This document shows, piece after piece, positions 9,214 through 49,201 of a stretch of 64,000 bases of DNA. The number at the start of each line of letters is the position of its first letter. Position 1 is the stretch's first letter. This stretch comes from a virus. Under the pieces are notes generated by a model. That model worked only from the letters and a program-made list of their open reading frames with translations. It was not told the DNA's origin and did not search any database. The translations under genes and the position numbers were made by a program. The stretch lies in the IMG/VR virus record IMGVR_UViG_3300007177_000160, positions 50,266-114,265 of that record; one strand, 5' to 3'.

Positions 9214-9215
9214 CG

Positions 9216-9583
9216 AGGAGATAGAGGGAATTGAACCCTCGTCCAGAGAAAGCTGCAATTTAATGCTGTTTACACGCTTAGTACTGAGCAAGCTCTGCAC
9301 CGTAAGGGTTGACCGAAGTCAGATTCCACCACCTAGTTGAGTTGTCGGTAAACTAGGAAACCTAGAAGCAAGCTTCATGTGCCATTTTCTGTTCCAGGGG
9401 ATGACTCCCCGTGACTTAGGCTGCCATTTGATATTCGTTCACGAACTCAACTGCATCTTCAAAAGTCATGTCAGATAATTCTACGTTGCCGTTTAATTAG
9501 TTTGATACGTGATTATAGAGAACAGTACCATCTCTCTGCGTGAGCACTAAACCCAATCAATCCTGTCGATTCCTGTTATCCCC
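9216..9583 (-). ncRNA. ssrA: tmRNA
   Basis: 5' GGGGATAACAGGAATCGAC; 3' GGACGAGGGTTCAATTCCCTCTATCTCC (T-arm plus acceptor); acceptor stem GGGGATA/TATCTCC with G3-U70; internal tag ORF 9490-9416 ending YQMAA*; about 368 nt. Confidence 0.92.
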
Positions 9584-25500: not shown

Positions 25501-28500
25501 ATTTCTGAATAAACATTAGGTAGAAGTATTGAATAAGTAACAGAGTCTGGAATAACTACTTTTCCTGGAGTATTAAAAGCATCATTATCGAAACCTAATT
25601 CTTTTAATAAGCTAGTAGGCATTACCAAAGATCTCGTGGTAGATTTACCCGATAAACGGTTTAATTCTTCTACGCCACGTTTAATAAAGCCCTGTATCTC
25701 ACTGAAGTGTTTAAGGGACTCGGTAGAGTCTACAGTTTTAGTTGCATTGTCTTCTGTTTTAATTCCAAGTAAACTAGCAATCTCAGCAGTACGAGGTGTA
25801 CCATCAGTTTCTACATTACGCTCACCAGTTACGACATTAAATAAATAATTTAAAAGTAAAGAGTAGTTACCGCCCCCATTAAAACTAGAATTTAACTGCG
25901 GATATGCTGCCAATAAAGATGGTAAAGTAGGATACTTTTGGTAGTCGTTCATTGCAGCTACTATACGAGTCATATACGTATGAGGAGTAACTGACCACAC
26001 TTTTTTATTAAGTGCGTTGAATTGCATATCATTTGCGTATTCAACATTCACTTTAATTTCAGCATCAACTAATTTGTAAAGAGAACGTACTTCAGAGTTA
26101 ACATTCTTGCCTTCAGAATCTTTATGAGTACCTCTTAAAACTTCCAAAGGTTTGTAGATAAGACCAGTTTCTGTAGACTGTGCAAAGCTTTGAATCTTAT
26201 TGTAGATTAACTTAACATCAGACTGTAAGTCTTTCGCGCTTCTAGTTAAGATTGTTTGCTTAGCCAACTCAGTAAAGTTAAAACCAAGTGGCTCTAGAAG
26301 ATTTAATAGTTGAAGCTTGTACTCATTAAGTGTTTCTTCTGTGACAGAAACTCCTGCAGGAATAGCAGGAATTGCGTAGTCTGCAAAGTATTTGTCTGTA
26401 TTTAAGTAATAACTTCCTGTTTTTGGGTCTACTAGCTTATATAAACCTGGGGATGAAGTAAATACATTATCCCACATTTTAGAAAGGTTTAATACATCAG
26501 AAGTTTTTGCTTTATAAATTTGGAAGTCTACAAATGAATCTCCGTTTTCATTTTCTACTACTCGAATTTCTTTAATGAATCCATCTACATAAGGCATAGC
26601 AAATGTATTGTAGAATAGATTTTTAAAGTTTAAAGTAGATTGCTTTACATTAGCTTCTTTAGGGTTAGGCAAGTAAGCTAACAATGCGCGGAACTGAGGT
26701 TGTTCTTTAGATAATTGAGTTAAACGATTATAAAGTTCCTCGTAAGAGTTTGAACCAGATAAAGTTCTTTGTAAACTATTCCAGTTTAAATCAAAACTGC
26801 CTACAGTATTTACTCCAAAGACATTATCCTTAACAGGTCTGCGATTCTTGTAAAGAGGTAAACTCTTAATAGCAGAAATAATTAAAGGATGCGCTGTAGT
26901 CTTCTGAGACATTTCCTCAATAGAAGTTTCTAAACGAGCAAACTCTCTAAGCGGACCAGTTTCCTGTTCGTCCTCTACTACTTCTTCTATAGCTATTTTT
27001 CTTATTTTATCACTAAACAAAGGAGAGTTAGCTTTAAAGAAAGTAAATAGAGTATTAGAGTTGGTATATAAAAGAGATGTGTAGTTAAACTTACGAGTTG
27101 CAGCTGCAGTAGGATTTTCTTCTACTTTAGCAGCATACCGTGTGCGAGCTTCTCCTATCAGTCTGTGCATCTCTTGTAACACTGCTTTAGTTAATTGAGG
27201 ATTCTCAACAACGTTTACAAAACTTGCTCCGTAAGGCTGACCTAGTTTAGCGGCAACATCAACAAACAAAGAATCCATTTGGGTTAGAATCTGCTGACTC
27301 TCACGGAAACTAAATACTTTGTCTGTATTGTCTGGGTGTTTTACTACAAGCTTAGCACTGTATAAAGTTTTAAAGTAACCTGCATCCTCATTACGAGTGT
27401 AGGAACTAATGTTACCTTTGTATAACTGAGAGAAGTATTTGTCTACAGTTAGTTTATCAGTAAAGAAACCTGTTAAGAAATCCCAAATTTTCTGGAAGAT
27501 ATTCTTAGTGCTTTCGTACTTAGCAATCTCGCTTGGCATTTCAGTACCATTGCTTAAAGCAAATTGACGGAAAGACTCGGCTAGCTTCTCTTCTAATTCT
27601 ACTAAAGGAAGTTCTCCATAAATCTTTCTTGCTTCTGCGTATAAAGCTTCACGCTGTGCAGGGGTTAAATACATTTGAGAAAACTCGTGCCAAGCTTCGT
27701 GGTATGCTTCTGCGTAGTTAGCATCTGCAAACAAAGTTATAGCTGCTTTAGACCAAGTAGCATAAGCTAGAGGATGGCGTAAGGTTTTATCAAAAATAAA
27801 CTTAGTATTCTTAAAGATAGGGTGACTATTTACCCACTCTTCTGCTGCTTTATTTTGAGCCTCAGTAATATCATTCTCTAACTCTAAAGACCTAAAGAAA
27901 TCGTCTTCAAAAGGATTTGGAATGTTTGCTGGTGGTGGCTGGTCCCAAGGATCTCTAAAGTCAAAGGTATCACTAGAAAATTCATCTTGTGCAAACTCTT
28001 TTGATGCTGCACGTTCTTCCTTAGCAATAATTCCTCTTATGCCGTCATACTTTGGATTTTTCTTAGGATTAAATCTTCCATAGACTGTATCTATGTTGCG
28101 AGAATTTATTGTACCAATACCTCCAGGATAAGTAGTCATAAAGTCTACTAACTCCGAAGGACTTACTTCACGACCAATTCGATCTTCAATAAGTTGAGCA
28201 ATTTGGTCTAAACCTAATATACTAGTTGCAGGGGTACTTCTTTTGGGGAAATACGTCTTCTTAATTTTATCTCCGTAAACTCCGTCTAAACTATTTTTAT
28301 CACCAAAGCGAATGAAAGATTGTTTGCTGGTTATAAATGCACCACCAAATAAACTATCGATAGCTGCCTGTAAGTCATTTAAGAAAGACCCTGTACGGAA
28401 TGCTTCTAAATCAACTTGGTATTCTTGATACATTTCAGCCTGGGCTCTTTGTATAGCCTCTCTGCGCTCATTAGCATCTTGTATTCTTCTGGAAGGGAGT

Positions 28501-33962: not shown

Positions 33963-35828
33963 TTACTCAATACCTAAAGAAGAAATATCAACTTCGGAAC
34001 TAAATTTAGGTCCTTTATTTACTTTGTTTGTGTAGTCTACACTTTTGGTATTAATCATAATAGGATTACCATCTTTATCTTTTGCTATATTTCCTGCAGC
34101 ATCTAGCATAGGTTTAGTAGTGTATCCTATACTAGAAGGTAAACCAACAGCATAACGATCAGTTAACCTATTTCTATTCATAAAGAAGTTTAAGTTATCT
34201 ATGTTACCTAAAGAATAATCAAAAGAATTACTAAAACTAAATGGCTTACTTACTCCATTGTCTGATTTCTTTTCATTATCAATAAAACTAATCATTTGAT
34301 CTATCTGAGTTAGAGCATTATTTATAGTGTTGTCGTAATCTTTTACACTAACTGCATCAGTAAATCCTAAAATTTGAGCAACTGCTGGTTTGTAGTTCCA
34401 ATTTAATTTCTTTGGGCCTAAATAATTTTTAATTAAAGTTTTAAGTCCTGTAAGTTGTGCTACCCCACTTTGGTTTTTAATCTTCTCAACTTCTTCTACA
34501 AACTTAATAAGATTATTAGAAGCTACTGCATTTTGCGGATCTGCAAAATCTTTTCTAGCTTCTTGAGCTAATGCAACTAATTGGCTCATTTGATTTCCTT
34601 GTATGTTTTTAATAATCTTATTCATCTCAGGAACTACTATTTCATTCTTAGCAGTACCTAGATAGTTGATCTCTTGATTTATTTTAATCTTAGCACGCTC
34701 ACGTTCCAGAGCAAGATTGTGCTGTAGATATACTCGGTTATTCTTTTGCTGCTCTTCCCAGTATTTATTTCCAATTAAGTCATCTGTTACTTTCTTAGCA
34801 GCATACATATTACCCATGTTAGAGATAAACTTATCTTGATAAATTTGAGAATACTCTTGTATATCAAATTCATCATAAGGTTTGTTTACGTTCTCATTAG
34901 CTTTTACTCTAACTTGCTCAAAGTATTGAAGACCTTGTTTTGCTTGTTCTAGCTGAGCTTTTGTAGTAGCACTAGGAGCTTTAGAATATGCATCTTCGTA
35001 TGCAGCTACTAATTGAGCTTGTTGTTGGGCTTTTAAAGATGCGTCATCAGCAATAGTTTTATTGTATTCTACAAACCCTTGGTATGCGTTATCTTTACCT
35101 AAACGATTTAAGTTGTATTGAGAATCAATCTGAAGCTGACGCATAGCCTTTGGATCAGCCTGTAAGAAACTTCTAAAGCGTGAAGCTATATCAGCTTCGC
35201 TATAACCTTCTTCGGTTCTCTTTAATAGATACGCGGGACCATAACCAGTTCCTTGTCCAGGAGCACTTATAGAAGTTTGAGAAGGAGTAATCTTTTGACT
35301 CTTCATAAAGTCATTCCACTTCTCAGTCAAGTCATAATACTCTTCGTAAGTTTTACCGTAGGCTATTTTCTGACCTACTTTTCCAGAAGATAGATACTGT
35401 TGAGCATCATTCATAAAGAAGAAATCATTAGCAGCTGAGCGTTTCTTAGAATCCATTTTACTAAGTTCGCTTTGTCTGCGTCTAATTTCTTTTCCATTAC
35501 TTATAGCAGTAAGAATGTTATCGTCACGCTCAACGTATTGACCCATGTTTAAAACAGCGTCTACATTTGCTTTATACGAAAAGTCAATTCCTGCATTAGA
35601 ATTTACCTGCTTAACTAACTTAGTCATTGCAGTATCAAAGTACTCACGCTCTGCGTCAGTGACTATATTATTTCTAAGTGCACTATACTGATCTAAGGTA
35701 GTTCTAACTTGAGCTAGACCTTCATCATATAATTGTTGCTTTTTTTCTGCTAACTTAATAAACTCGTCAGCAGGTAAAGCGGAGATATAGTCAGGATACT
35801 TAAAACTACTACTAGAGTGTGAAATCAT
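33963..35828 (-). CDS. Virion cargo protein in the RNAP cluster
   Basis: 621-aa helical protein directly upstream of the vRNAP, in the conserved crAss-like gene order. Confidence 0.6.
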   Translation of the reverse strand: MISHSSSSFKYPDYISALPADEFIKLAEKKQQLYDEGLAQVRTTLDQYSALRNNIVTDAEREYFDTAMTKLVKQVNSNAGIDFSYKANVDAVLNMGQYVERDDNILTAISNGKEIRRRQSELSKMDSKKRSAANDFFFMNDAQQYLSSGKVGQKIAYGKTYEEYYDLTEKWNDFMKSQKITPSQTSISAPGQGTGYGPAYLLKRTEEGYSEADIASRFRSFLQADPKAMRQLQIDSQYNLNRLGKDNAYQGFVEYNKTIADDASLKAQQQAQLVAAYEDAYSKAPSATTKAQLEQAKQGLQYFEQVRVKANENVNKPYDEFDIQEYSQIYQDKFISNMGNMYAAKKVTDDLIGNKYWEEQQKNNRVYLQHNLALERERAKIKINQEINYLGTAKNEIVVPEMNKIIKNIQGNQMSQLVALAQEARKDFADPQNAVASNNLIKFVEEVEKIKNQSGVAQLTGLKTLIKNYLGPKKLNWNYKPAVAQILGFTDAVSVKDYDNTINNALTQIDQMISFIDNEKKSDNGVSKPFSFSNSFDYSLGNIDNLNFFMNRNRLTDRYAVGLPSSIGYTTKPMLDAAGNIAKDKDGNPIMINTKSVDYTNKVNKGPKFSSEVDISSLGIE

Positions 35829-35839
35829 GGTTGGTAAAA

Positions 35840-38746
35840 TTAATTATTCTTTTTTACTTTCTTATACAACTGTCCGCCTGTTTTTATATAACTACCTAAC
35901 TTAGAAGACTTTTTAGTTTTAGGTGCTGCCGCCTCGGTTACGGGAGCAGTGGTAGTTAAATCCTGGGGGTTAAGGGTTGTATTAACTAAAGGAGTTCTTT
36001 GGTTGTAAATAGGATTAGCTACAGGAGTCCAAGTTCTTGTATTAGCGTCGTAAGAATACGAAGGCATAAAGTTTTTAGAGTACAGCTCTTTTAGTGCCTC
36101 GTCTTGTTCGTACTGGGCTCTGCTTTCTACTAGATTAGTCAGTGCGGCTTGTTTAGCCTCAGATTGTTTAGCTTTAGCTGTAGCGTATAACTGATTGTAA
36201 GTTCTATCAAACAATTCTGCATTAGCCATTTGGGTTTGCATATCTGCCTGGAAATTAGTTACATCTGCTTTCCAGCGGCCCTCAGCATCATAGTTTTGTT
36301 TTGTTTGGTATGCTTTATTCTTAGCATCTAGTGCCATAGCATAAGCCATATTAGGATCAGCACCAGCACGCAAAGCTGAAACTTGCATATTATCTACATC
36401 TTGTAATTGGCTTTGGATATTCAAAGTCTGAGGTCTGATATAAGGTGCCTCAATTTCAGGCACTGCATAAGGGAAAATTTCTTGAGACTGTGCAAGTGCA
36501 TAGGCTCCAGGAACTGCCTGCATTAAATCATAAGGCTCTCTTTCGTAAGTACCAAACTTTGGTTTAACCATTGCAGGAACTTCCCCTGGAGTAGGCTGTG
36601 TAAATTCTTCAGCTACAATTTCTTGTTCGTCATATACACTAGGTACAGTAGACTTAGCGTATTGACCTGCAGTAGTGTTTGTGTACGCAGCATCAATAGG
36701 ACTAATTTGACGATTACCTGCGATTACACCTGGCTCGTCAGTAACCCCACGTTGTCCAATATCAAAGTATTGGATTTTCTGAGATAATTCAGGGCTTAAT
36801 TGATTGTTAGTCCTTGCATCAATTAAGTCACGATAACCTAAATAAGTAGCCTGTTGTAAAGCAGCAGTCTTTGGGTCTTCCGCTAGAGGAATACCTGCGG
36901 CTTTAAATTCAGCAGCTAGTCTTTTATTAGTTACTGAATTAGGATCATTAGGATCTCCTATTTGACTTAAATCTATATTACGAGCCTTAAGGGCCAAGTT
37001 ACGTTTGTTTAATTCTAAGAAGTTTTTAACTATCTCCTCATCTTTCATATTATCTATGTCAGAAAGTTGACCATAAGCTTTTGAGGTCTTTCCTTTCTTA
37101 CCTGTGTAGTAAGCTTGGTTTTTAGCAGCGGCTCTTGTTCTTTCTACTAGAGCTTTTCTTACTTCAGGATCCGATAATTGTTGTTCTAGATAAGCGTATT
37201 CATTTGCAGTAGCTTGGTCGCCTGCAAAAGTAGTTCCTAAGTCTGTGCCTTTATATTGAGGTAAAGCAGAACGTTGTCCAGTAACCTTAACTAAATTACC
37301 CTTATCGTTACGGTAGTATTCGCCTACCTTAGCTTCACCTTTAGGTTTAATTTTAGATTCAGGGACTACTAATTGTTTTCTACGTTTATTATCTCCTAAG
37401 TCTAAAATTTGGTAAGTGTTACCTTCAGAGTCGACTTCAGTTCCTAAAAGTTTATAACTCTGTCCACCTCCCTGCATGTTGGAAAGAATCTTAGCTTGTA
37501 CATATCCAGGAAGTGCTTTAAATCCAGGATTGTTAGTGCCACCATCTTTCATCTGTGACATAGGCTCGCCAGTTGAGTTACCGTTTAATAGTTGCTGCTC
37601 TTGGAATAACTTATCCAAAACAGCTTCATTTTTAGCTTTCATGATAGCGGCCGTGTTTTTGTCTACCTGCTTTGCAAAAGGATTATCTAAAATTTCTTGG
37701 TACTTAGTACTGTCGTATTTCTTAGCAATCTGAGCAAAAGTCTTATTAGAGTCTTTTCCTTTTGTGCCACCCGACATAAAGGTATTAAAATCAAAACCAG
37801 TTAATTCTCCACCACTTTGCATAAATGCACCAAGCTTCATCATTTTTTCTTCTGGACTAAGTTTCTGCAAGTCACCTGGTTTTAAGTGATCAGAAAACAC
37901 TCGAGTTCCTTCAGGGAGATTTGTATTTGTTCCTCCCATAGATACACCGTTAACTTGATACTTGTCACTGTGACTGGGACCAGAAGCTATCTCACTAGTT
38001 CCATCAGGAAGTAGTAAGTATTCGTTATTTTCTATTTCAACATTATTAACTCCGTACTGGGGAGTATTAGGACGAGTTGAAATTCTTGCGCCTTTTTCTG
38101 CCATAATAATTGGTTGATATTCTGTTCCACCTGATGTAGTACGACCATACATATAGTTGTAATCATATACAGGCTTAGATTGTCTTTGTTGTATGGAACG
38201 ATTAAATTCTGTTTGACGACGTAAATCATCTTTATAGTTTAACCCAGCAGAAATGCCAGTTAATCCTAATGTAGCCCAGCTACTCCAATCAAGGGGGTTT
38301 TTAGATTTGGTGTCTTTTGTATCTTCTGTATCTTCTTCATCTCCTCCACCTAATGATTCTTCTGCAGCTATGCTAATGCCTTGAGCTTGTTTTACACTAG
38401 CTGGAGTAGATGTTTCGTACTCAGTAATATTTAAAACATCGTCTTGAGGCAAACCTTCTAGTTTTGGTAGTGGTTGATTTTTATTAGGTACCTGATTAGG
38501 AGTAAAAAAATCTTCACCTGTAAAAGGAAAAGACTCTTTCATTTTTTTGATTTCCTTGTCTGTATATTTTTTAGGCAGACTTAATGGATTGTTTTGGAAG
38601 TACGCTTGTTGTTTAGCAAATTCTTCCTCAAATTGTTTTTGAAAATCAACGGCCTCTAAACCTTTACCTTCTAAATTGTTGGTATTAACACCTGCATTTT
38701 GCATGTATTTTTTACCAAACTTTTTATATAAGGAGTGCCTTAACAT
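35840..38746 (-). CDS. Virion cargo protein with multiple MxxGG motifs
   Basis: 968 aa; VEIENNE..GPSHS..GG..RVFSDHLK segment; low-complexity Q/A-rich C-terminus. Confidence 0.65.
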   Translation of the reverse strand: MLRHSLYKKFGKKYMQNAGVNTNNLEGKGLEAVDFQKQFEEEFAKQQAYFQNNPLSLPKKYTDKEIKKMKESFPFTGEDFFTPNQVPNKNQPLPKLEGLPQDDVLNITEYETSTPASVKQAQGISIAAEESLGGGDEEDTEDTKDTKSKNPLDWSSWATLGLTGISAGLNYKDDLRRQTEFNRSIQQRQSKPVYDYNYMYGRTTSGGTEYQPIIMAEKGARISTRPNTPQYGVNNVEIENNEYLLLPDGTSEIASGPSHSDKYQVNGVSMGGTNTNLPEGTRVFSDHLKPGDLQKLSPEEKMMKLGAFMQSGGELTGFDFNTFMSGGTKGKDSNKTFAQIAKKYDSTKYQEILDNPFAKQVDKNTAAIMKAKNEAVLDKLFQEQQLLNGNSTGEPMSQMKDGGTNNPGFKALPGYVQAKILSNMQGGGQSYKLLGTEVDSEGNTYQILDLGDNKRRKQLVVPESKIKPKGEAKVGEYYRNDKGNLVKVTGQRSALPQYKGTDLGTTFAGDQATANEYAYLEQQLSDPEVRKALVERTRAAAKNQAYYTGKKGKTSKAYGQLSDIDNMKDEEIVKNFLELNKRNLALKARNIDLSQIGDPNDPNSVTNKRLAAEFKAAGIPLAEDPKTAALQQATYLGYRDLIDARTNNQLSPELSQKIQYFDIGQRGVTDEPGVIAGNRQISPIDAAYTNTTAGQYAKSTVPSVYDEQEIVAEEFTQPTPGEVPAMVKPKFGTYEREPYDLMQAVPGAYALAQSQEIFPYAVPEIEAPYIRPQTLNIQSQLQDVDNMQVSALRAGADPNMAYAMALDAKNKAYQTKQNYDAEGRWKADVTNFQADMQTQMANAELFDRTYNQLYATAKAKQSEAKQAALTNLVESRAQYEQDEALKELYSKNFMPSYSYDANTRTWTPVANPIYNQRTPLVNTTLNPQDLTTTAPVTEAAAPKTKKSSKLGSYIKTGGQLYKKVKKNN

Positions 38747-38803
38747 TAGATTAATTTTTTATGTTATAACTTTAATAATGAAAGTTAATAATTACACTAA
38801 TTA

Positions 38804-38833
38804 CAAATATAATTTATTAACTAAAAAAAGCAA
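38804..38833 (-). promoter_or_regulatory. Bacteroidota sigma-type promoter for the cargo/RNAP operon
   Basis: TTG-N19-TATATTTG; the -33 TTG lies inside the upstream terminator stem. Confidence 0.75.
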
Positions 38834-38850
38834 GGGATTATTTCCCTTGC
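38823..38850 (-). terminator. Intrinsic terminator overlapping the stop of the small basic ORF
   Basis: GCAAGGGA-aataa-TCCCTTGC followed by TTTTTTT. Confidence 0.8.
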
Positions 38851-38987
38851 CCTCTATATGCTTTTTGATAGTTCTTACTCTGCTTTAACTTAGAAGATTT
38901 AGTCTTAGCGTGAATGCCTGGTCTGCTTACTTTGGGTTTGTCTTTAAATGCAGACGAAACACTAGTGGATTTTGCTTTAGTTGCCAT
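38838..38987 (-). CDS. Small, highly basic protein, 49 aa (not in the ORF track)
   Basis: MATKAKSTSVSSAFKDKPKVSRPGIHAKTKSSKLKQSKNYQKAYRGQGK*; A-rich leader; stop lies in the terminator loop. Confidence 0.75.
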   Translation of the reverse strand: MATKAKSTSVSSAFKDKPKVSRPGIHAKTKSSKLKQSKNYQKAYRGQGK

Positions 38988-39009
38988 AGTATTAATTTTA
39001 AAAGTTAAT

Positions 39010-39525
39010 TTACCATTTTACTTTGTTAGCGACACTTATACACAAAGAAACAAATTCTTCTTGTGTGTATTGTTGTTTGCACATATTTACCATCTTATGT
39101 ACCCATTGAAGATTTCCTTCAATATATCCTTTAGATGAGTCTATTCTATCTAATGATGCTGTGTTTTTATTTACTTGCATTGCGTCAATATCCCAGCCTG
39201 TTAATGCACATTTATAATCTTGTTCGATAAGCAAGTCAGCTAAATACTCTGCCGTTACTTGCCAAGTTATATTTCTAAGAGCTGCTTGTATCCTATACTT
39301 ATCACAAAAAGAATATCTTAAAACTCCTTTAACCCATCCTTTATGTTGGTTATTTTCAGGTCGAGAGTTGCTACAAGCTTTACATTCTTTACCTGCATTG
39401 TAAGAATTAATAGCATAGTTTCTACGTAAGTAAGATTGTAATTCTCCGCAATTAGGGCATTTTTTGTACCAACGTTTATCTGTCCCTAAATAAACTTCGT
39501 TAGGTAAATCTAGAGCGTCTGACAT
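39010..39525 (-). CDS. Free-standing HNH-type homing endonuclease with Zn finger
   Basis: CPNC..CKAC, QDYKCALTG, ASLDRIDSSKGYIEGNLQWVHKMVNMCK; likely ATG start at MSDAL (39525). Confidence 0.75.
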   Translation of the reverse strand: MSDALDLPNEVYLGTDKRWYKKCPNCGELQSYLRRNYAINSYNAGKECKACSNSRPENNQHKGWVKGVLRYSFCDKYRIQAALRNITWQVTAEYLADLLIEQDYKCALTGWDIDAMQVNKNTASLDRIDSSKGYIEGNLQWVHKMVNMCKQQYTQEEFVSLCISVANKVKW

Positions 39526-40127
39526 AACATTAAAGGTATAAATAAAATCCACTTAATTTTGTTGGCCCAGTACGCTGCAGAAGATTTTCCTTTTGCAATA
39601 TTCTTTGCGTGACGTGCCTTAAATGCCTTGTTACGTGCAGATCCATCAGGAGATCCTGACACACCTTTCTGACCAAAACGAATTAATTTATAGTTACCAT
39701 TAACTTTTGTTACAACTGCGTGACTCTTGTTACCACTAGTAGTTCTCTTTGGTTTATCTACTCCAGAAAATCCCATCTTCTTATATCTATCGGGGAAGCC
39801 TCCGACTTTACCACCACTAGCCATATAACTTTGATATAAGCTGCCTCCCTTTTTGAATTTATATCCGTACTTAGAAGCATCTTGTCTGGCCTCTTGTATG
39901 TTGCCATTATTAGCTGCAACAAATCTAGCCTTAGCCACAGGAGTAGGCATCTTACCTCCGCTCTCCATCTGCATACCATACTTAGCTTTTCTCCAAGTAC
40001 CGCCTTTAGACTTATAATATTTAGCAGCCCAGCCATTAGCATAAGCTGAAGGATACACATCAAACTTTTGTCTAGCAAGAGATTTTGCTCTAGACCACAA
40101 ACTAGGATTATTAGGTTTATTTGCCAT
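39510..40127 (-). CDS. Basic modular protein (three short modules separated by xxGG motifs)
   Basis: PSAYANGWAAKYYKSKGGTW module; KLIRFGQKG...FKARH...SAAYWANK module. Confidence 0.75.
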   Translation of the reverse strand: MANKPNNPSLWSRAKSLARQKFDVYPSAYANGWAAKYYKSKGGTWRKAKYGMQMESGGKMPTPVAKARFVAANNGNIQEARQDASKYGYKFKKGGSLYQSYMASGGKVGGFPDRYKKMGFSGVDKPKRTTSGNKSHAVVTKVNGNYKLIRFGQKGVSGSPDGSARNKAFKARHAKNIAKGKSSAAYWANKIKWILFIPLMLCQTL

Positions 40128-40129
40128 TG

Positions 40130-41653
40130 TTATTTTCTTTTATGATTGTAAGGTATTCTTTGTGAAGATGTTTTAGTTGCTTTAAATCTTGCTTTTTCTT
40201 GACTAGACATCTCAGAACTAGTCTTAGGGGTTTTACTGCTTATTCTGCGAGAAGGACGACAAGCAGGATACGCTCTATTTTCACCCTCTTGACGACCACA
40301 TGGTTTACCTGATTTTACGTCTACCCACTTTTCAGCAAACCATCTATCAAGTCCTCCATGATTTCCGCCTGATTTATATTTTTTATAAAGCGACGGAGTA
40401 GATGCTATTACAGTACCATTAACTCCTGGAATAGACATGCCTCCCATTTGCATTACTCGGGAAGCTTCTAAAAAATTATCGAGATTGTAGTCTACATCTT
40501 CTTCTTCAAAGTCTTCAACCATCTTTTTTGCAATCTGCTTTCTATTATCCTTATCCTTAACTTGTCTTAAAATACCAGCAATACCTTCTACCATTTCTCT
40601 ATCGTCATCGTCTTCTTCCTCTTCCTCTATTTTGCCTCCTACTTTCATATTAGGAACATAATCAGACATCTTAAATCTGATTGGGTCTGCTAACATGTTG
40701 TACTTAGCAGTACGTAAAGCAGAAGCATTTTCTGCATCTTGGACTGTATTGTACTTACCCATGTGCAGTCCAGTCTTATAGTAGTTAGCAACAGCTTCGT
40801 CTTCTGTAAGCTGTCTGCCTTGTACTACTGTAGGAATAAGAACTTCTTTACTATTATCGTTAATTCCGATTTTATACTCAGAACGCATACCACCAAACTC
40901 ATCTTTATATGATGGTCTATTTATATCTGGTAAAAGATAGTTACCTTCTTTAGGAGCCTTCATTTGGTCGTAGGGACCTACAGCAAACTTGCCGCCACCT
41001 TGCATAATTGGTCTAGGTCTAGGTGCAACATAAGTAGACTCACGTTGCGGAGTTCTTTGAGTGTTTAAATAAGTACTAGTGTTATAAATTGTTCTTGTTT
41101 TGTCGACAGGTTTTGTAAAACTATTTATTACATTAGACCCTCGATTTAAACTTCGCGAAGTAGCTGCTAGTCCTCTAGCAGTATTTCGTGCGCCTGCATT
41201 TGCTGCATATCTAGCTAAAGACATTGCTCCCTTAGCGGCTCCGCCTGTTAAAATATTTGCGGTATTTAATCCTACTCCCCACAAATCTCCTTGAACTGCG
41301 TCATTTACTAATCCTACTCCAGAAGCGTATATACCAGTAGGACCTGGAATATAAGATGCAAGATCTAATAACATTTCCCCACCACTCTGCATGCGTTTTT
41401 CAAACACCTGCTTATCATTTGGAAAATGGTATTCTTTACCTGGCTGCATTACTTTAACTTCACCAGACTGCACTCCTTGTCCTATAATCGGTTCTTTAAA
41501 ATAATCTTCAGAACCATCAGGACCTTTCATAGTAATGCGATTTGATGGAACAATTACGTCTTTATCTTGAAACCACATCCCTGTTTGACTGACAGGGACG
41601 GGCTTCAAGTTTTGCTTTAGTTGTAGTAAGTAAGAAGCTAAGCGTTTAGACAT
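40130..41653 (-). CDS. Modular protein (about five modules separated by [MY]xxGG); C-terminal DUF5872-like module
   Basis: GGLDRWFAEKWVDV..CGR..YPACRPSRRISSKTPKT C-terminal module. Confidence 0.75.
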   Translation of the reverse strand: MSKRLASYLLQLKQNLKPVPVSQTGMWFQDKDVIVPSNRITMKGPDGSEDYFKEPIIGQGVQSGEVKVMQPGKEYHFPNDKQVFEKRMQSGGEMLLDLASYIPGPTGIYASGVGLVNDAVQGDLWGVGLNTANILTGGAAKGAMSLARYAANAGARNTARGLAATSRSLNRGSNVINSFTKPVDKTRTIYNTSTYLNTQRTPQRESTYVAPRPRPIMQGGGKFAVGPYDQMKAPKEGNYLLPDINRPSYKDEFGGMRSEYKIGINDNSKEVLIPTVVQGRQLTEDEAVANYYKTGLHMGKYNTVQDAENASALRTAKYNMLADPIRFKMSDYVPNMKVGGKIEEEEEDDDDREMVEGIAGILRQVKDKDNRKQIAKKMVEDFEEEDVDYNLDNFLEASRVMQMGGMSIPGVNGTVIASTPSLYKKYKSGGNHGGLDRWFAEKWVDVKSGKPCGRQEGENRAYPACRPSRRISSKTPKTSSEMSSQEKARFKATKTSSQRIPYNHKRK

Positions 41654-41658
41654 GCGGA

Positions 41659-42531
41659 TTATCTAATTTTGATTGGAGAAATAGGTTTACTGCTATTTCT
41701 AATATAGGAAGATAAAGTGGCTTTCTTTACAGGAGTAGTTTTTTTCGCAGAAGTTGTGGGAGCCGCAGGTTGATTTCCTGACACAGGCATACGACGAAGA
41801 TCTCCTACTGCTTTATCAAAACCTTTATTGTTTTGAGGTACTGCATTTAAATAAGTAGAAAGAGAAGGACGACTAGTAGTGGGCATCATATTTATGGGAA
41901 CACTAAACTTAGGCTCAGGAGTTTTCATCCAAGAAGCAGTGTTTGCTTTTGAAGGGGCTGTAGAACTTGTTTTAGCGTTCTTGACATACATCTCGTAGGC
42001 CTTTTGTGTTTTAGGGCCCCAAGATCCATCTTCCGCTAAACCAGCTCCATACTTTTCGTTAAGCATCTTTTGATATGCTTTTACTCTTTCTTTTTCTTGT
42101 TGTTTGCCTAGTTCTTTTTCAGCAGAAGCAAGCACTTGACGAGCTTGAGTCATATTAGGATCTAATAGTTCTACAGCATTGTCTAATGGACTAATGTCCA
42201 TCATAGCAGAACTCTGCACCATTTCATCAGGCTCACTCATCATGCGATCTGGTCCCATTGGGTCTTTAAACTCCATACCACCTTGGCCCTTACGCATACG
42301 AGAAAGTGTCTTAGCTAAGTTAGCCCTCTTAACAGTAGTAGAAGAATAGTCTTCTTTATTAGCAAGTACTTTGTCTCTAAATGCAGGAACAGACATTCCA
42401 GCAGATTGTGCTTGTTTTGTAAATGAACCTGGATTTTTAATAGCAGACTGTATCCATTTACCGCCAGACTTCATTTTCATTTTACCTCCACATTCCATGC
42501 AGGTAGAATAAGATTTTTGTAAGCGTCCCAT
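41659..42531 (-). CDS. Modular protein with a peptidoglycan-binding-like motif
   Basis: VKAYQKMLN...LAEDGSWGPKTQKAY matches PG_binding_1; N-terminal MECGG and MKSGG. Confidence 0.7.
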   Translation of the reverse strand: MGRLQKSYSTCMECGGKMKMKSGGKWIQSAIKNPGSFTKQAQSAGMSVPAFRDKVLANKEDYSSTTVKRANLAKTLSRMRKGQGGMEFKDPMGPDRMMSEPDEMVQSSAMMDISPLDNAVELLDPNMTQARQVLASAEKELGKQQEKERVKAYQKMLNEKYGAGLAEDGSWGPKTQKAYEMYVKNAKTSSTAPSKANTASWMKTPEPKFSVPINMMPTTSRPSLSTYLNAVPQNNKGFDKAVGDLRRMPVSGNQPAAPTTSAKKTTPVKKATLSSYIRNSSKPISPIKIR

Positions 42532-42919: not shown

Positions 42920-45900
42920 TTATAAAGAGGTAGTGTTTAATTGGTTAATCTGCAAGTTGTTTACAAACTTATAGCGATTATACTTATCCTGTATTAATCT
43001 AACTTTTGTAAAGTCTGCTTTGATTTTGTTTTTCTGGAAAGCTACTCCTACGTTACGCACCGCTTTAACGTTAGGCATCTTATCAATAAAATAATCTGCT
43101 TGTAAATCTTCCCACTTAGTAGTCCACAAAGGCTGACCATTCGCTTGTGCGGCTAAGTTCCAAAAACCATTAAAGGTATATTTATTCTCTCTGCGAGAGA
43201 TAATAGTATCTATTCCTTGTGGTGTAACTTTTGGATACATTAGTTTTTGTCTTGTGTTACCAAAGATTTCAGGAATCAAATTAATAATTCCAGAAGACTG
43301 TTCACGGTTATAAACAATTGCTTTGGTAAAGTTAGCTACATTTTTATTATTTGTAGTTCCTAGCGAATAATATTCGTATTTAGAATAGTACTCCTGAATG
43401 TCTTGAACTAAGCTAACTGAGTTTAAAATAGAGTTAGCAGGGAGACTATTCACTAAGTACTCAATAATGTAAGGATATAATTTACCGTAATAGGTTTGAT
43501 AAATATATGGACTTAAATTATGATTCCATAAAGACGATCCTAGTGGTGTAGTTATGATAGTCTGGAAATGCCCTAACTGAGGAATAAAGAAATTAGGTAA
43601 GAAAGAATAGAAAGAAATAAAGTTTTTCAACTTAGGACTATATGCTACAGTCCATGACTTGTTCTCAAAGTATTCTTTCTGACTAAAGTCAATACGTGTG
43701 CGTACTCCATTGGTATTAAGAACGTAGTAGCGATAGTCAGGGTCTAGTCTATCGGTTATGTATTCTACTTTAGTCGTGCCTGTTCTATATTGAAGTCTTA
43801 CTCTGTAGTCTAACTTAGTTATAAAGATACGCTCAAAACGTTCGTCCCAACCCATAACAATTCCAATACCTAATGAAGGAACATCTACGTCTGCTTCAGG
43901 GAAATCTTTTAGGATTTGGAATGGTAGGTTTTCTTTAAACCAGTTATAGTTTAACTCGGACTTAATCTCGTTAAATCCTTGACCAGTGATTTGATAAATA
44001 TGACCACGCTTAGCATCTACCCAGAATGTGCCATATTCAGTTCTTACATAAGCTTTGTGCTGAGATCCGATATATCCTAAATCAGTAGTAGAAAGATCCA
44101 CAGGCTTCTGCTTGAACATATCTGCGTTGCCTATCTCTAACTGATAAGGAGAAGTAGAGCTTAATACAATACGTGCATTATATACTTTTGTGGTGTTTTC
44201 AAATCGAGCATATACTCTTTCGCTTTCTCCCGCATTTAAGTCGATTAAGCGACCACCTTGTTTAGGGAAGTCATAGAAGTTTCCTGGGCGGAAAGACAAC
44301 CACTTATCTGAGGTAAGATTAGAGTCACTAGCCTGATCTGAATAGATTACTCTGTTCTGGTGATTAATAATACACTCTAAGTTAGGATACTTTAATCGGT
44401 AAGGCTGGTTAGGCGACATATTCTGTATAGAGTAAGTCGCATTGTAGTGATAGTAGTTATCAAACTTAATTGGCACAGTAGCTTCTTGTAACCACTCATC
44501 AGGTACTCCTCCCCCTACGTTAGGATAGAAGTTCTCTTTATCTAAATCACGTCCGTGGCGGAAGTGTAGGTTTACATCAGACTCTACAAAGAAAATTGGA
44601 ATACCATAAGACGCTGTATAGAAAATACCATCCTTATGGTATCTAGTGTTTTCTGCTTTGTCTAAAGATGTTTTCTTAACAAATTTGCTCCAAATAGCAT
44701 TAACTCCTAAAGTAATAAAAGGAGCTGCACCATTCATAAAAACGTAGTTAGTAACAATTTGACTTACATAATTCCAAACTCCTGTTAAACCTCCTGAAGA
44801 ATTAATTGCATAAGTAGCTGCTACAGCAGCAGCAATGCCAGTAATAAACGCAGCAATATCTCCAGAATTTAAGCTGTCCATGTTTGAGCTGGTCCCAATA
44901 AAGAACTTTGGATATCCCAAGTTAGGAAATAACCAGTAGTCAAATGGCATTTCATCGGCTTTGGCTGGAAGATTAACTAAGTTTCTTGTAAAGAAAGAAT
45001 GCTTACGCTTAATAGCAAAAGGTGTAATATAAGTATCTCCTCCAAAAGCAGGATAATACTTATAAGATAAACTTACAGAACCTCCACTATGTCTTATAAG
45101 ATCTTGACGATAACCTGTACTTACATAACGTAAATTCTCAAGCGGACCATACTGATTAGGGAATTGACGTTTTACTGATGAGTAATAAGCTCTAGTCAAT
45201 CTATCTTCAGTTAAATCTTGCGGATTACTAGAAGCATGATTTGAAGCTAGGTAACGACTATTGTCTATAATCTGAGTAGAATGTAAGGGAAGGTAGTCTC
45301 TTAGTTTAAGATAAACTGAGGTTTCTCTAAGTCTGTTGTGCAAAGGAGCGTCGTCAAATACTTGTACAATTCTGTCGTTTGCGTAGTAACCTAAGTCAAT
45401 AAATCTACGTGACTTTCCTCTATGTATAGAAGGAAGATTAAGCGGGTCTATTGCAACGTACTGGTTATAAGTAGCAATTGAGTTATACTGATAAGCAAAG
45501 TTTACAAATGGAATAAGTTTCTCAGCTATATCTAAGAACAATTGTTCATTCGTAAACAGTTTATCTATTCTAGCAGTAAATGCACTTCGGTTTCTACCTC
45601 CTACGGTAACAGAAATGTCGGCTTCAGTCTCTGACTTTTGTTCAAAAGAAATAAGAGAAGCTAAAGTACCTGCGTCGATAAATGCTTGTTTCTTCAAGAA
45701 TCTGTAACGAGGATGCTCAGCCACTGGCATAAAGTGACCTAGTACTTTACCAAACTCAATGGTCTCTAATTTAAGCTCTGTTCCAATTTTAGGATATTGA
45801 AAAGATGTATCGGGAGAATAGAAAGTGTATCTGTTGTTCCCGATAATAGGAACATTGGCAAATCCACCTACACCACCCACGCCAGTAGAACCATCTTCCT

Positions 45901-48900
45901 CCAGTACCTTTTCACTTTCCTGATACCATCTTGAGTCATTCATCAAGTAAGGATCCGCAAATAAGTCGTTGTATGGGTAGTTAGGATAGTAGTACTTCTT
46001 AATAGGACCGTCCCCAGAATTATCTTCAAATACACCTACGTCATATAAAAGACCTTTTGCTATAACAGACTTGTTACCTACGCGAGTTGCGTGAACTAGT
46101 TCGTATCCGCAAATAACATCTTTAATTGGAACGTTAGTCTTTTTAATAGGGTCGTAAACAGTGTATGCATAAGTTCCGTCTGCTTTCTTTTGATTTAACA
46201 AAGAAGTCAAAGCAGCTTCATCTATACGTACTCCAATAGGATAGATGGTCGAGTTGTAGTCGTTGGTTACGGTGTGATCTATCTCTCCGTCATGTGCCAT
46301 CTGCTTGTCGTGTATATGGACTTTAGCAGAGTCAGGAAACTTATGATGTCTTATAGGTTTACCTGCTAAGGCATTTGGGTCGTAATAAGGTGCGTTAGGA
46401 TCGGTAGACTGTCCCCATATCTCATCGTAGCATGGATATACTTCGGTAGACTCCCAGTAAGCAAATTGACCTTGCTTATGATTCTTAATAGCACAGTTAT
46501 ATTGTTTTTCAATTTCATCAGAAAGATCTTCATCTTTAGATATAGGTACGCCAGCACTTGCAGTGTTGTATACTTGCCAACGAGGAAGTTCGCTTGGGAA
46601 TATACAATCAGACTCTCCAACAAAAACATCTGGATTACTTGCAGCTTGTTCTAGTATTAAATCATTTGAAGTAGCCTTTCTTCCTGGAATATGGAATACG
46701 TCTGTGTACTTACCGTTCTTTAGTCTGAACTTAATACCAAAAGCGTAAACCTCATCACGCTGATAAGTGCGGAAGAAGTATGCAACTTCAGGAGAAGAGT
46801 AATCAAATTGCCCGTCAGCAGGCATCTGTACGGTTTCCCACAAAAGGTTAATCTTAGAAGCAAACGGCTGGAAGTTATATTTAGGAGCCTCCTCTAAGTC
46901 AGCTAACATTAGAATGTCGTTTTGCTTTTCAATAATGTTTGCTGTTTCGTAATGAGGGCCTCTTATAATAGGAACAATTGAAGAGAAACTAGATTTATAG
47001 TCTCCTGTATAAATAACTTGATCTGTATCTGAATACTGGTTAACTCTGTAAGTTCCTACTAAATGATAAGTAGTGGTAGTGTTTATAGTTTCAGCTACTA
47101 CTACGTTGAAGTATTCAAATATCTTAGTCTTATGAAAAACTTTTAAGTTAACTGATTTAGAAGTTACATACTCGGTCTGCTCTGTAATTGCTCTTTCGTA
47201 AATAGGAATTGGATTAGTAAGATCACAATACTCAGTAAGCTCAATTCCTTGTTCGTCTGCATAAGCAATAGCAAAAGAATAAACACCTGCCTTTAATTGT
47301 CCTCCGTCATTTACATCAGTTACATGTACTTCTGGAATACAAAAGTCAGCAAAGATTTTAGAGTCCTCACAAGATTCTTTAATACAGGTTCTTGCTTCAC
47401 CACAAGCATCTCTACCATAAGGATATTCTACAGAAAAATATCTAGGAGGATTATTCCTAGAGATATAGTAAATTTTAGTCTCGCACTCATCTATGCGGTA
47501 TTCTGCGTTTACAGGAAAAGCAATATCAAAGTTTAAACAACAGTTATCTTTAGAAAAAGTCTGCGTTTGTCCTGTTACAAGAACTTCTTGAATTACAACT
47601 AGTCTTGGGTGATTTAAATCTAAGGTACCTTTCTTTGCTTTGAATCTTTTGTTAGTAGCTAGGATAAAGTCTTCTACATAATTGCCTTCACAGTCAGTGT
47701 AACTAAATGTTTTTTGTACTGTACTGAGTGGATCTCCTACAACTATAACTTCGCCAGTAGTAGGATCTGTTACTGCAATACCTGAAGCCGTATAACCTAC
47801 TACATATTCGTAGCAGTTGTCTTCACAAGAATCTAAGCAGTCATCTACAACGAGATCTTCGTATTTACAGCAAGTAGGTTCAGAAGTAATCTCAATTTGA
47901 TTTTGAGTAATTATTCCCTTGCATCTTACAAGACAGTTTTCATCAGCAACTAGTGTATAACCTTCAGGACAAGCACTAGTTAACTCAGTAAACAAACCAC
48001 CTAATCCTGGAGGATTAGCAGTAGTAGGACGTTTAGGTTGAGAACTAATAGGCTGACCATTACTTATAACTCTTTTACTCTGTAAAGTAGCTTTTGTTAA
48101 AGAAGGACTTGTAAGTTCGGCTAAGGTAATGTCGTATAACTCATACGCAAACATTCCAATACCTAAACTGTTTTTATACTCAAACTTAATTAAGTGACTG
48201 CCTGCAGTAAATTCAACTGGGAAGATATGGAAGGCTGACCACATAATAAATCCATTCTCTGCTGGGTTTATTGGATAAGTCGAGTAGAGTCTTTTTGCAG
48301 ACTCACTTGGACTTGTTCCCGCCTGAATATCTAAAATAACAACACCATCTACAGTAATACGTAAAGATTCGTCAGCTGCAACTCCTAAAAAATATTTTTT
48401 AGTTTCAGGAATACATACTGTTTCTGTAAATCCAATAAAGTCATGCGCTACAGTATGACAGGTTCGACACGACCCACCTGAAGGATTTAAATCTGCTTGA
48501 ACAGCAATGTCTTTTACATAAGTAGGAACGTTAAATACGCCCGAACCATTGGGCACCCAGAAAGACTGACTTAGGGAGGTATAAACGGACGAGTAACTGT
48601 TAGGAGTCAAAGTTGTCCAAGTATCACCATATACTCTGGGATAAAGACAACCGTGAGTAGAAACAACTCCACAAGGTCCACCGTCTATACAAGTTTCAAT
48701 TACAGGAACACCTGGTAACTCTGTGTTCAATGCTCTATATGCAACTTGTTCACACTTCTTTGTAGTCGGATTATAAGTAAATCCATCTGGACACTCTAAA
48801 GAAACAGTTGGCTCAGGTAGGTCTTCAAATACAGTATTCTCTGTTATGATTGTTCCTTCTTTACAGCCACAGTCCTTTTCAGTTATCTCTATATCTAAGC

Positions 48901-49201
48901 AGGCGTTGTTAATTGCTGTAATCTGCCCTATGCGAGAACGTCCATCGGGGTGTGTAAGAAATAAAATAACCTTTGACTGCTCAACAATATTAGTAAATCC
49001 AACAACTTTAAATCCAGCTAACTCTCCTTCAGTAAAATTATAGCAAGAAGTATTACCTGGCTCGTTGGTGTACGTGATAGAATCTCCGTCCATACCTTGT
49101 ACGTTGGCGTTAAGTGCCCACGTAACCTGGTTTTCTTTTACTTGCCAAGTAATTGAATCTAGATTTAAACCTATTATATTTTGATTTACTTTAGTCTCCA
49201 T
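42920..49201 (-). CDS. Tail stabilization/muzzle-type protein
   Basis: 2093 aa; GLNLD..ALNAN start, TYQRDEVYAFGI, FGGDTYI, SWTVAYSP..FISFYSFLP motifs; position after the ring protein. Confidence 0.75.
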   Translation of the reverse strand: METKVNQNIIGLNLDSITWQVKENQVTWALNANVQGMDGDSITYTNEPGNTSCYNFTEGELAGFKVVGFTNIVEQSKVILFLTHPDGRSRIGQITAINNACLDIEITEKDCGCKEGTIITENTVFEDLPEPTVSLECPDGFTYNPTTKKCEQVAYRALNTELPGVPVIETCIDGGPCGVVSTHGCLYPRVYGDTWTTLTPNSYSSVYTSLSQSFWVPNGSGVFNVPTYVKDIAVQADLNPSGGSCRTCHTVAHDFIGFTETVCIPETKKYFLGVAADESLRITVDGVVILDIQAGTSPSESAKRLYSTYPINPAENGFIMWSAFHIFPVEFTAGSHLIKFEYKNSLGIGMFAYELYDITLAELTSPSLTKATLQSKRVISNGQPISSQPKRPTTANPPGLGGLFTELTSACPEGYTLVADENCLVRCKGIITQNQIEITSEPTCCKYEDLVVDDCLDSCEDNCYEYVVGYTASGIAVTDPTTGEVIVVGDPLSTVQKTFSYTDCEGNYVEDFILATNKRFKAKKGTLDLNHPRLVVIQEVLVTGQTQTFSKDNCCLNFDIAFPVNAEYRIDECETKIYYISRNNPPRYFSVEYPYGRDACGEARTCIKESCEDSKIFADFCIPEVHVTDVNDGGQLKAGVYSFAIAYADEQGIELTEYCDLTNPIPIYERAITEQTEYVTSKSVNLKVFHKTKIFEYFNVVVAETINTTTTYHLVGTYRVNQYSDTDQVIYTGDYKSSFSSIVPIIRGPHYETANIIEKQNDILMLADLEEAPKYNFQPFASKINLLWETVQMPADGQFDYSSPEVAYFFRTYQRDEVYAFGIKFRLKNGKYTDVFHIPGRKATSNDLILEQAASNPDVFVGESDCIFPSELPRWQVYNTASAGVPISKDEDLSDEIEKQYNCAIKNHKQGQFAYWESTEVYPCYDEIWGQSTDPNAPYYDPNALAGKPIRHHKFPDSAKVHIHDKQMAHDGEIDHTVTNDYNSTIYPIGVRIDEAALTSLLNQKKADGTYAYTVYDPIKKTNVPIKDVICGYELVHATRVGNKSVIAKGLLYDVGVFEDNSGDGPIKKYYYPNYPYNDLFADPYLMNDSRWYQESEKVLEEDGSTGVGGVGGFANVPIIGNNRYTFYSPDTSFQYPKIGTELKLETIEFGKVLGHFMPVAEHPRYRFLKKQAFIDAGTLASLISFEQKSETEADISVTVGGRNRSAFTARIDKLFTNEQLFLDIAEKLIPFVNFAYQYNSIATYNQYVAIDPLNLPSIHRGKSRRFIDLGYYANDRIVQVFDDAPLHNRLRETSVYLKLRDYLPLHSTQIIDNSRYLASNHASSNPQDLTEDRLTRAYYSSVKRQFPNQYGPLENLRYVSTGYRQDLIRHSGGSVSLSYKYYPAFGGDTYITPFAIKRKHSFFTRNLVNLPAKADEMPFDYWLFPNLGYPKFFIGTSSNMDSLNSGDIAAFITGIAAAVAATYAINSSGGLTGVWNYVSQIVTNYVFMNGAAPFITLGVNAIWSKFVKKTSLDKAENTRYHKDGIFYTASYGIPIFFVESDVNLHFRHGRDLDKENFYPNVGGGVPDEWLQEATVPIKFDNYYHYNATYSIQNMSPNQPYRLKYPNLECIINHQNRVIYSDQASDSNLTSDKWLSFRPGNFYDFPKQGGRLIDLNAGESERVYARFENTTKVYNARIVLSSTSPYQLEIGNADMFKQKPVDLSTTDLGYIGSQHKAYVRTEYGTFWVDAKRGHIYQITGQGFNEIKSELNYNWFKENLPFQILKDFPEADVDVPSLGIGIVMGWDERFERIFITKLDYRVRLQYRTGTTKVEYITDRLDPDYRYYVLNTNGVRTRIDFSQKEYFENKSWTVAYSPKLKNFISFYSFLPNFFIPQLGHFQTIITTPLGSSLWNHNLSPYIYQTYYGKLYPYIIEYLVNSLPANSILNSVSLVQDIQEYYSKYEYYSLGTTNNKNVANFTKAIVYNREQSSGIINLIPEIFGNTRQKLMYPKVTPQGIDTIISRRENKYTFNGFWNLAAQANGQPLWTTKWEDLQADYFIDKMPNVKAVRNVGVAFQKNKIKADFTKVRLIQDKYNRYKFVNNLQINQLNTTSL

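Follow-up and report, generated by a model that had tools for sequence, protein, structure and literature searches.

A recurrent [M/Y/F]-x-x-G-G peptide at the module borders of putative cargo proteins in a freshwater crAss-like phage

Few phages are as abundant in guts and waters as crassviruses. The present analysis concerns an uncultured freshwater crAss-like phage represented by IMG/VR record IMGVR_UViG_3300007177_000160. The window, i.e., the whole stretch of 64,000 nucleotides that was analysed (positions 50,266 to 114,265 of the record), forms the right-hand end (64 kb) of a viral genome that is complete at 114,265 bp, carries direct terminal repeats and, judging by its genes, is that of a crassvirus. 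The element in question is a short peptide motif, [M/Y/F]-x-x-G-G, which recurs in four neighbouring open reading frames (ORFs) of the late operon, designated here by their length in amino acid residues (aa) as ORF290, ORF507, ORF205 and ORF968; these ORFs constitute the variable front part of the crassvirus cargo (ejected-protein) gene block. All features of the window described below lie on its minus strand. The structure of crAss001 has raised the question of how several megadaltons of protein cargo are loaded and delivered, and the motif provides a handle on it. The new elements of the analysis are the match between the N-termini of stand-alone proteins and the residue following Gly-Gly, the link to trios of small podophage genes, the split and permuted DUF5872 domain and the re-analysis of a crAss001 virion gel; no paper on the motif, on the function of DUF5872 or on cargo processing in crassviruses was found in the literature.

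Phage crAss001 encodes cargo proteins C1 (gp45) and C2 (gp46) between its muzzle gene and its virion RNA-polymerase genes; both proteins occur in the capsid and the tail and are thought to be ejected first (Bayfield et al., 2023; PMC10172136). Two parts of gp45, one in the tail and one in the capsid, are 420 Å apart; the resolved pieces comprise residues 214–245 in the tail barrel and residues 425–552 on the portal, and the paper mentions neither the motif nor cleavage (PMC10172136). In the gp45 sequence, a basic N-terminal leader is followed by a motif copy (MAKKKIKRRGKMPPNI-FDTGG-Q, with FDTGG at residue 17), and the resolved pieces are bounded by SAYGG (206–210), FAEGG (260–264), AFGG (425–428) and FAYGG (559–563); a Gly-zipper transmembrane (TM) segment is a further point of likeness. 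The four ORFs lie in the same muzzle-to-polymerase slot and, since C1 and C2 (PF25725, crAss_CARG1) fill this slot in crAss001, they can be assigned to the crassvirus cargo slot. Unlike crAss001, the phage described here has three extra strongly basic multi-module proteins, and its motif is far denser and dominated by Met. The portal-binding domain crAss_CARG1 (PF25725) has no match anywhere in the genome at E ≤ 10, ORF968 has no Pfam match, and an hhalign comparison of the ORF968 domain with gp45 gives a non-significant probability of 8%. The four proteins thus appear to be cargo by position and content, and not demonstrable CARG1 members. They are most likely carried in the particle and injected, as suggested by synteny, by module homologues among structural and DNA-transfer proteins and by the SLT and LysM modules of one relative.

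A broader parallel is offered by polyvalent proteins, which are multi-domain, are packaged and injected with the DNA and have undergone rampant domain shuffling; their processing by zincins has been predicted, and virion RNA polymerases can carry a fused HExxH domain (Iyer et al., 2017; PMC5512222), an arrangement shared by the 4798-aa protein of this phage. The four ORFs likewise combine several unrelated domains per polypeptide, shuffled among relatives. However, they carry tiny non-enzymatic modules and not the catalogued enzymatic domains, with no match to MPTase-PolyVal, and a junction motif has not been described for polyvalent proteins.

The adenovirus protease adenain cuts (M/I/L)xGG↓x, and pS273R of African swine fever virus cuts GG↓x in polyproteins. 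The likeness consists in a hydrophobic residue upstream of an invariant Gly-Gly, in the virion-internal, partly basic nature of the proteins and in the location at unit junctions. In the present motif, however, an extra residue separates the hydrophobic position from GG, placing the former at P5 for a cut after GG; Tyr or Phe serve as well as Met, and Leu and Ile are rare. The original prediction, made from the sequence alone, had drawn on this analogy; it fails at both testable points, since the site grammar differs and no clan CE protease (C48, C5) is found in the genome. Internal proteins of phage T4 are also small, basic, head-packed and injected and have a short N-terminal leader before the mature part, a capsid-targeting sequence that the prohead protease gp21 removes; however, the site of gp21 is L/I-x-E, no S77 prohead protease is found here, and the units here are concatenated. 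As regards double-glycine leaders and C39 export, the C39 domain (PF03412) has no match in the genome. The modules themselves are members, or half-members, of small DUF5872, DUF5754 and PHROG 7595 and 20603 proteins known from marine podophages and giant viruses. In podophages, these proteins are encoded by separate small genes and lack the motif, whereas here DUF5872 is split and permuted.

The motif and the four modular ORFs

The signal shared by the four ORFs is [M/Y/F]-x-x-G-G; it is conserved at the protein level, with a strict GG and a strict spacing. All 14 copies listed in the original prediction were recovered at their coordinates when these were recomputed from residue numbers; the four ORFs (1970 aa) contain 11 copies of MxxGG, plus FMSGG, FKKGG and YKSGG. 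Enrichment of the motif over background, which remained to be checked, is confirmed both by shuffling and by the rest of the genome. In 20,000 shuffles with residues permuted within each of the four ORFs, the mean number was 0.47 for MxxGG (11 observed) and 1.47 for [MFY]xxGG (14 observed), and none of the 20,000 reached either observed value. Met occupies position −3 in 11 of the 27 GG dipeptides of these ORFs and in none of the 130 GG dipeptides of the other 116 ORFs (33,480 aa). The claim that the motif is conserved as a peptide and not as a DNA repeat also holds. The copies differ in codons, and the GGT share among glycine codons is 0.61 in the motif and 0.59 at other glycines; because codons differ and glycine codon usage is the same as elsewhere, selection can be taken to act on the peptide. 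A DNA repeat or a DNA-level recombination signal was considered and is ruled out by the ordinary codon usage.

Each ORF is a chain of small, independently evolving modules. ORF290 (41659–42531), a basic protein of the modular cargo type (net charge +22), opens with a leader containing CMECGG and MKSGG (MECGG at 42484–42498, residues 12–16; MKSGG at 42460–42474, residues 20–24); there follow a phrog_20603 module (25–81), a GQGG seam, a peptidoglycan (PG)-binding-like region (128–203) and a Pro/Ser/Thr-rich tail. The Cys before MECGG creates a CxxC. This C-[MFY]-E-C-G-G sub-variant (42484–42501) is also present in relatives, across which Cys is about 16-fold enriched at −1 and x2 of the motif; it may be a metal or disulfide site.

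ORF507 (40130–41653) has five motifs: MQSGG (41378–41392, residues 88–92), MQGGG (40991–41005, residues 217–221), MKVGG (40634–40648, residues 336–340), MQMGG (40439–40453, residues 401–405) and YKSGG (40364–40378, residues 426–430). Its modules comprise an N-terminal region (19–91), a Gly-zipper hydrophobic region of the membrane type (92–216), a region shared with podophages (228–312), an acidic module (341–397) and the C-terminal half of DUF5872 (423–495). The shared region matches, in tblastn searches, ‘minor structural’ and ‘DNA transfer’ proteins of P22-like and other podophages. The acidic module (40463–40633) gives a weak match to an archaeal RPA32 winged-helix domain (E 0.025), and residues 84–125 give a very weak match to the nodavirus gamma peptide (E 0.37).

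ORF205 (39510–40127; net charge +33) consists of the N-terminal half of DUF5872 (5–52), a disordered linker (50–110) holding MESGG (39954–39968, residues 54–58), FKKGG (39843–39857, residues 91–95) and MASGG (39810–39824, residues 102–106), and a phrog_7595 module (114–193). ORF968 (35840–38746), in the slot of crAss001 cargo protein 1, has a degenerate leader motif, YMQNAG, a TM-like segment at about residue 160, a conserved β-rich domain at about 205–300 and four motifs between residues 309 and 428, namely MQSGG (37808–37822, residues 309–313), FMSGG (37766–37780, residues 323–327), MKDGG (37538–37552, residues 399–403) and MQGGG (37463–37477, residues 424–428); IKTGG is located 12 residues before its C-terminus. 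The podophage matches of ORF507, the differing module order among phages and the LysM and SLT modules of one relative all fit ejected, periplasm- and membrane-active cargo. At the level of DNA and protein similarity, isolated phages (Siovirus, roseophages, cyanophages and P22-like phages) match single modules only, and ORF968 has no similarity match among isolated phages.

A scan of viral contigs with ORF507 yielded 80 loci. About 30 of them, on contigs of ~30–127 kb, carry the same cargo block with long, multi-module, motif-dense ORFs; about 50, on small podophage contigs, encode these modules in separate, adjacent small genes that lack the motif. In 57 non-identical cargo ORFs from the ~30 motif-dense loci, the first position of the motif is M in 48%, Y in 32%, F in 14%, L in 4% and I in 3% of cases. 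Of all GG dipeptides, 43% have M, Y or F at −3 (background 12%), and only 7% have one of them at −2. The enrichment of GG after [MYF]xx is 6-fold, with GA, AG, GS and SG at or below expectation. The density of the motif is 6.7 per 1000 aa in the cargo ORFs and 1.15 in other ORFs of the same loci. The flanks show weaker preferences: P at −2 and E, M or C at −1 of the hydrophobic residue, A, K or Q at x1, and, in succession after GG, E/Q/Y, I/M and P. Close relatives keep M/Y/F and GG while the x positions vary, as in MESGG/MADGG, FKKGG/FMSGG and MASGG/MAKGG. In 19 of 63 cargo ORFs, a short leader of basic or hydrophobic character comes before a first motif that lies in the opening 25 residues, e.g., MKKYKVRIKSAPES-MAYGG-Q in C1-position proteins. 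The cargo genes of Cellulophaga phage phi14:2 have few motifs, which makes this cultured phage a poor model for the motif.

Many relatives’ cargo ORFs share an acidic tail of about 25 residues, ...E-h-x-h-T/S-x-E-E-h-x-x-h-x-x-x-G-x-x-h-E-h-h-D (e.g., L005:1762–4053 and L026:7938–10535, coordinates of relatives’ loci), which is absent from all four ORFs of the window. A separate, conserved acidic C-terminal mini-domain of relatives sometimes holds LxxGG; this was not counted as the motif because its GG is often QG, LG or MG.

Module borders and stand-alone genes

The original prediction placed the motif at the borders of exchangeable modules strung like beads in cargo proteins, and this picture is supported. 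PHROG and Pfam matches, tblastn searches and an AlphaFold model agree on the border location, module architectures are shuffled across relatives, related phages have the modules in different arrangements, joined or separated, and podophages encode them in small genes of their own. In ORF290, the profile of the stand-alone family phrog_20603 (59 residues) begins directly after MKSGG, residue 25 being its position 2. In ORF205, position 1 of phrog_7595 projects to residue 107, directly after MASGG. In ORF507, YKSGG directly precedes the DUF5872 C-half and phrog_23735, position 2 of which is residue 433. The same border can be followed at gene ends. In 81 alignments with proteins in which the module is internal, the initial ‘MA’ of ORF205 and orthologous proteins falls on the ‘GG’ of [M]xxGG-NVPTNPELW, a separate gene of locus L007 starts at the residue aligned just after MQMGG of ORF507, and the GQGG seam of ORF290 corresponds to a stop codon in L007 and L003.

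An all-against-all BLAST of the shuffled relatives, with a window of −5 to +10 residues around the motif, placed 312 starts of homology blocks near motifs, compared with 124 ± 16 for random placement, and 341 block ends, compared with 149 ± 18; the hits in this test are not independent, but they exceed the random level by a wide margin. The AlphaFold model of ORF205, built with 53 aligned segments, comprises two modules, 1–49 and 111–195, with pLDDT 85–97, separated by a stretch (50–110) that holds all three motifs and has pLDDT 40–64. The motif lies in linker predicted to be disordered and ends exactly where the next module begins. A Foldseek search with the ORF205 model against the PDB gave no match at E ≤ 0.001.

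DUF5872 (116 profile positions) is split between two ORFs. The end of ORF507 corresponds to profile positions 42–110 (56.3 bits; cut-off 27.5), and the opening of ORF205 to positions 1–48 with 19.2 bits, below the cut-off; a whole DUF5872 in one polypeptide above the gathering score was not found. The halves are permuted, the C-half ending ORF507 and the N-half opening ORF205 (39972–40387), and in L002, L018, L026, L027 and L073 both halves are present in reversed order within a single ORF. The podophage small genes encode the DUF5872 N-half, the DUF5872 C-half and the phrog_7595 module. In Siovirus-type and other podophages, the module genes adjoin large proteins of the internal-virion type; in Celeribacter phage P12053L (Siovirus), the small genes follow genes of large hypothetical proteins and of one PG-binding-domain protein at the end of the structural region. 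One relative of the motif-bearing ORFs carries LysM and SLT transglycosylase modules. As a marker of module borders, the motif offers a means of dividing hundreds of unannotated cargo genes into their units.

At L034:7832–8291 and about 40 further podophage loci (L029–L080), DUF5872 is encoded by two overlapping ORFs in different frames. The N-half ends in ...DGGKKAKKRR*, the ATG of the C-half lies ~30 nt upstream of this stop, and the overlap contains an A7 run (GGAAAAAAAGCGAAAAAG). The arrangement may represent two genes, or a +1/−2 shift or transcriptional slippage joining the halves.

Processing, docking and other readings

The original prediction regarded the four ORFs as polyproteins of exchangeable cargo peptides, either cut at GG or loaded into the head by means of the motif. 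Modular cargo and a border signal are borne out, while cutting is unproven. Tentatively, and with somewhat less than even confidence, [M/Y/F]xxGG is read here as a processing site that is cut at some stage. A co-packaged protease would cut at or just after GG, and cutting would free the modules as small proteins of the kind for which podophages have individual genes. Processing gives the best account of the exact coincidence between the end of the motif and the beginning of modules and stand-alone genes; it further accounts for the parallel between motif and module numbers and for the copies in short leaders. A true cutting site would mean polyprotein processing of injected phage proteins and a function for the HExxH domain of virion RNA polymerases.

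The HExxH...E region of the virion RNA-polymerase fusion appears to be the only protease candidate in the genome and would be the only candidate cutter. This putative zincin-like core, HEAWH(E)...LEEKLAE, is located at 27576–27701 (residues 2079–2120 of the 4798-aa protein); HEAWHE (2079–2084) and conserved glutamates ~36–41 residues downstream are invariant in five homologues, and the region aligns with residues 2131–2217 of crAss001 gp47. Homologue searches for the region returned 2 + 2 sequences, and sequence and profile searches of the PDB were empty; a Pfam search at E ≤ 10 of the neighbouring residues 1446–1812 gave no informative match. Its Atlas neighbours are LPD/polyvalent clusters (0.89–0.90), which are a lead only. 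Zincin-like domains accompany N4-type virion polymerases and are predicted to process injected polyvalent proteins (PMC5512222; PMC13434306). Protein g070 of phage phi14:2 (L084:10360–12141), the first cargo-position protein after the muzzle, contains two HExxH motifs (HEFTH and HEFIH), which indicates that zincin-like domains recur in crassvirus cargo blocks. A more specific scheme, in which small injected proteins are strung together in long genes as an effector polyprotein and cut at [M/Y/F]xxGG by the co-injected zincin-like domain, possibly after ejection, seems doubtful; if true, it would bring a new protease and a new site grammar to a polyprotein strategy previously known from viruses of eukaryotes.

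A number of observations weigh against cutting. For none of these proteins has a cleavage product been observed. Cutting after Gly-Gly is, to our knowledge, not an established activity of zincins, and the AlphaFold model of the HExxH region is too poor to support a zincin fold (pLDDT 46). The earlier remark that the window holds no obvious protease besides a zincin-like motif stands after family searches were extended to the complete genome: in six-frame translation, it gives no match to C48 (PF02902), C5 (PF00770), C39 (PF03412), the prohead proteases S77 (PF03420) and S78 (PF04586), ClpP (PF00574) or MPTase-PolyVal (PF18818), and the late gene products that were scanned contain no protease domain. 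Tandem arrays of 3–4 motifs within 30 residues, and copies 1–12 residues from C-termini (IKTGG of ORF968; the polymerase fusion ends in FCKGGS), fit a binding tag better than a cutting site. The N4 virion polymerase with its HExxH is packaged unprocessed (PMC5512222), and residues 425–552 of crAss001 gp45, modelled as one continuous chain, contain AFGG, TQGG and INEGG (PMC10172136).

The published MALDI peak lists of the 2018 crAss001 virion gel were re-analysed by peptide mass. Bands 1–9 identify gp44, gp47 + gp50, gp49 (+ gp44), gp20, gp26 + gp22, gp22 + gp25, gp25 and gp23, with 8–57 matching peptides each. Peptides of gp47 span residues 23 to 2341 in the ~270 kDa band and, given this coverage, its five motif-like sites appear to be uncut, which also speaks against processing. 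Matches to gp45 (90.7 kDa) never rose above chance (0–5 against 1–8 for shuffled sequences), including in the 77–100 kDa bands, which hold proteins of 77–97 kDa and in which gp20, gp26, gp22, gp25 and gp23 are clearly identified. This is consistent with gp45 not being a single 91-kDa species, although it is negative evidence from band mixtures and does not take in bands 11–13, to which gp45 fragments would migrate. Together with the 420 Å between the two parts of gp45, it is a weak hint in favour of cutting. Since the motif-bearing virion proteins of crAss001 look uncut, cutting, if any, may affect only exposed linker copies or come only after ejection into the host; post-ejection cutting by the co-injected zincin domain or by a host enzyme would reconcile most of the data.

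Alternatively, the motif may be an uncut docking or packing handle, i.e., a short linear motif bound by the portal, the tail-barrel rings, the capsid interior or a scaffold, or a set of aromatic/Met ‘stickers’; this is a realistic possibility, still well short of an even chance. The occurrence of copies in leaders, at module joints, in tandem arrays and near C-termini is the distribution expected of a multivalent tag, and a footprint of ~9–10 residues with preferences on both sides is typical of binding in a peptide groove. The motif is confined to the cargo of crass-like phages, the same podophage modules being without it, and the uncut GG motifs within gp45 425–552, together with the lack of a protease family, point the same way. 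Moreover, crAss001 cargo is held by short segments at 12-fold sites (PMC10172136), and the helix 214–245 is flanked by SAYGG and FAEGG. A receptor is not known, however, and the crAss001 maps do not resolve the motif stretches, even though they resolve an unassigned cargo fragment of 14 residues (PMC10172136). Three to 13 copies per protein exceed the needs of loading, there is no reason for a tag to stop precisely where the next module starts or to fall on points of gene fission, and the choice of M versus Y/F shows no significant shift by lineage (chi-square p = 0.14) that would hint at co-evolution with a receptor. Should the motif be a docking tag, it would serve as a portable signal by which foreign proteins are packed into phage particles.

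Two further explanations were considered. GG flexibility could make the motif a passive joint, a permissive hinge or an unfolding breakpoint for threading through the tail; the low-confidence, presumably flexible linker in which the motifs lie and the argument of the crAss001 authors that cargo must partly unfold to pass the tail (PMC10172136) agree with it. Such a hinge would not, however, need Met, Tyr or Phe exactly at −3 or a strict GG, and GA, AG, GS and SG are not enriched; it would be useless 3–20 residues from an N-terminus or 1–12 from a C-terminus, and it leaves unexplained why close relatives keep M/Y/F and GG while the x positions change, so that this explanation is improbable. The motif could also be a relic of gene fusion, with Met as the old or still-used start codon of small genes, given that 11 of the 14 copies here begin with Met and that the modules exist as separate genes elsewhere. 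This can be rejected as very improbable, because Tyr or Phe, which cannot be start codons, occupies the first position in nearly half of the copies in relatives (46%); stand-alone homologues, moreover, begin after GG and not at Met, and the GG would be left unexplained.

Genome context and neighbouring genes

The order of the genes in the late operon, read from PHROG and Pfam matches, is the same as in crAss001, with the cargo slot flanked by the muzzle and virion RNA-polymerase genes. The operon starts with the terminase, the portal, an acidic 394-aa protein and the major capsid protein (PHROG matches), followed by crAss tail ring proteins 3/4, 2 and 1 (Pfam matches) upstream of the muzzle gene. 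The 2093-aa crassvirus muzzle protein (42920–49201; PF25731 crAss_MUZ, E 2.8e-37) marks the upstream end of the cargo block, and a DUF5856 protein is encoded between it and the four ORFs. ORF621 (33963–35828), in the slot of crAss001 cargo protein 2, has neither a GG dipeptide nor the motif. After ORF621, the order is closed by the 4798-aa and 2046-aa proteins, which align with the crAss001 virion RNA-polymerase proteins gp47/gp50 and gp49.

A gene of an HNH homing-type endonuclease (39010–39552; phrog_3322, E 3e-22) lies between ORF205 and ORF968 and stands outside the motif system. It overlaps the end of ORF205, adding 12 odd residues (ILFIPLMLCQTL) past the conserved ...YWANKIKW terminus seen in L003. 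The window also contains a phage-encoded tmRNA with a 24-residue tag (9215–9583), identified using ARAGORN.

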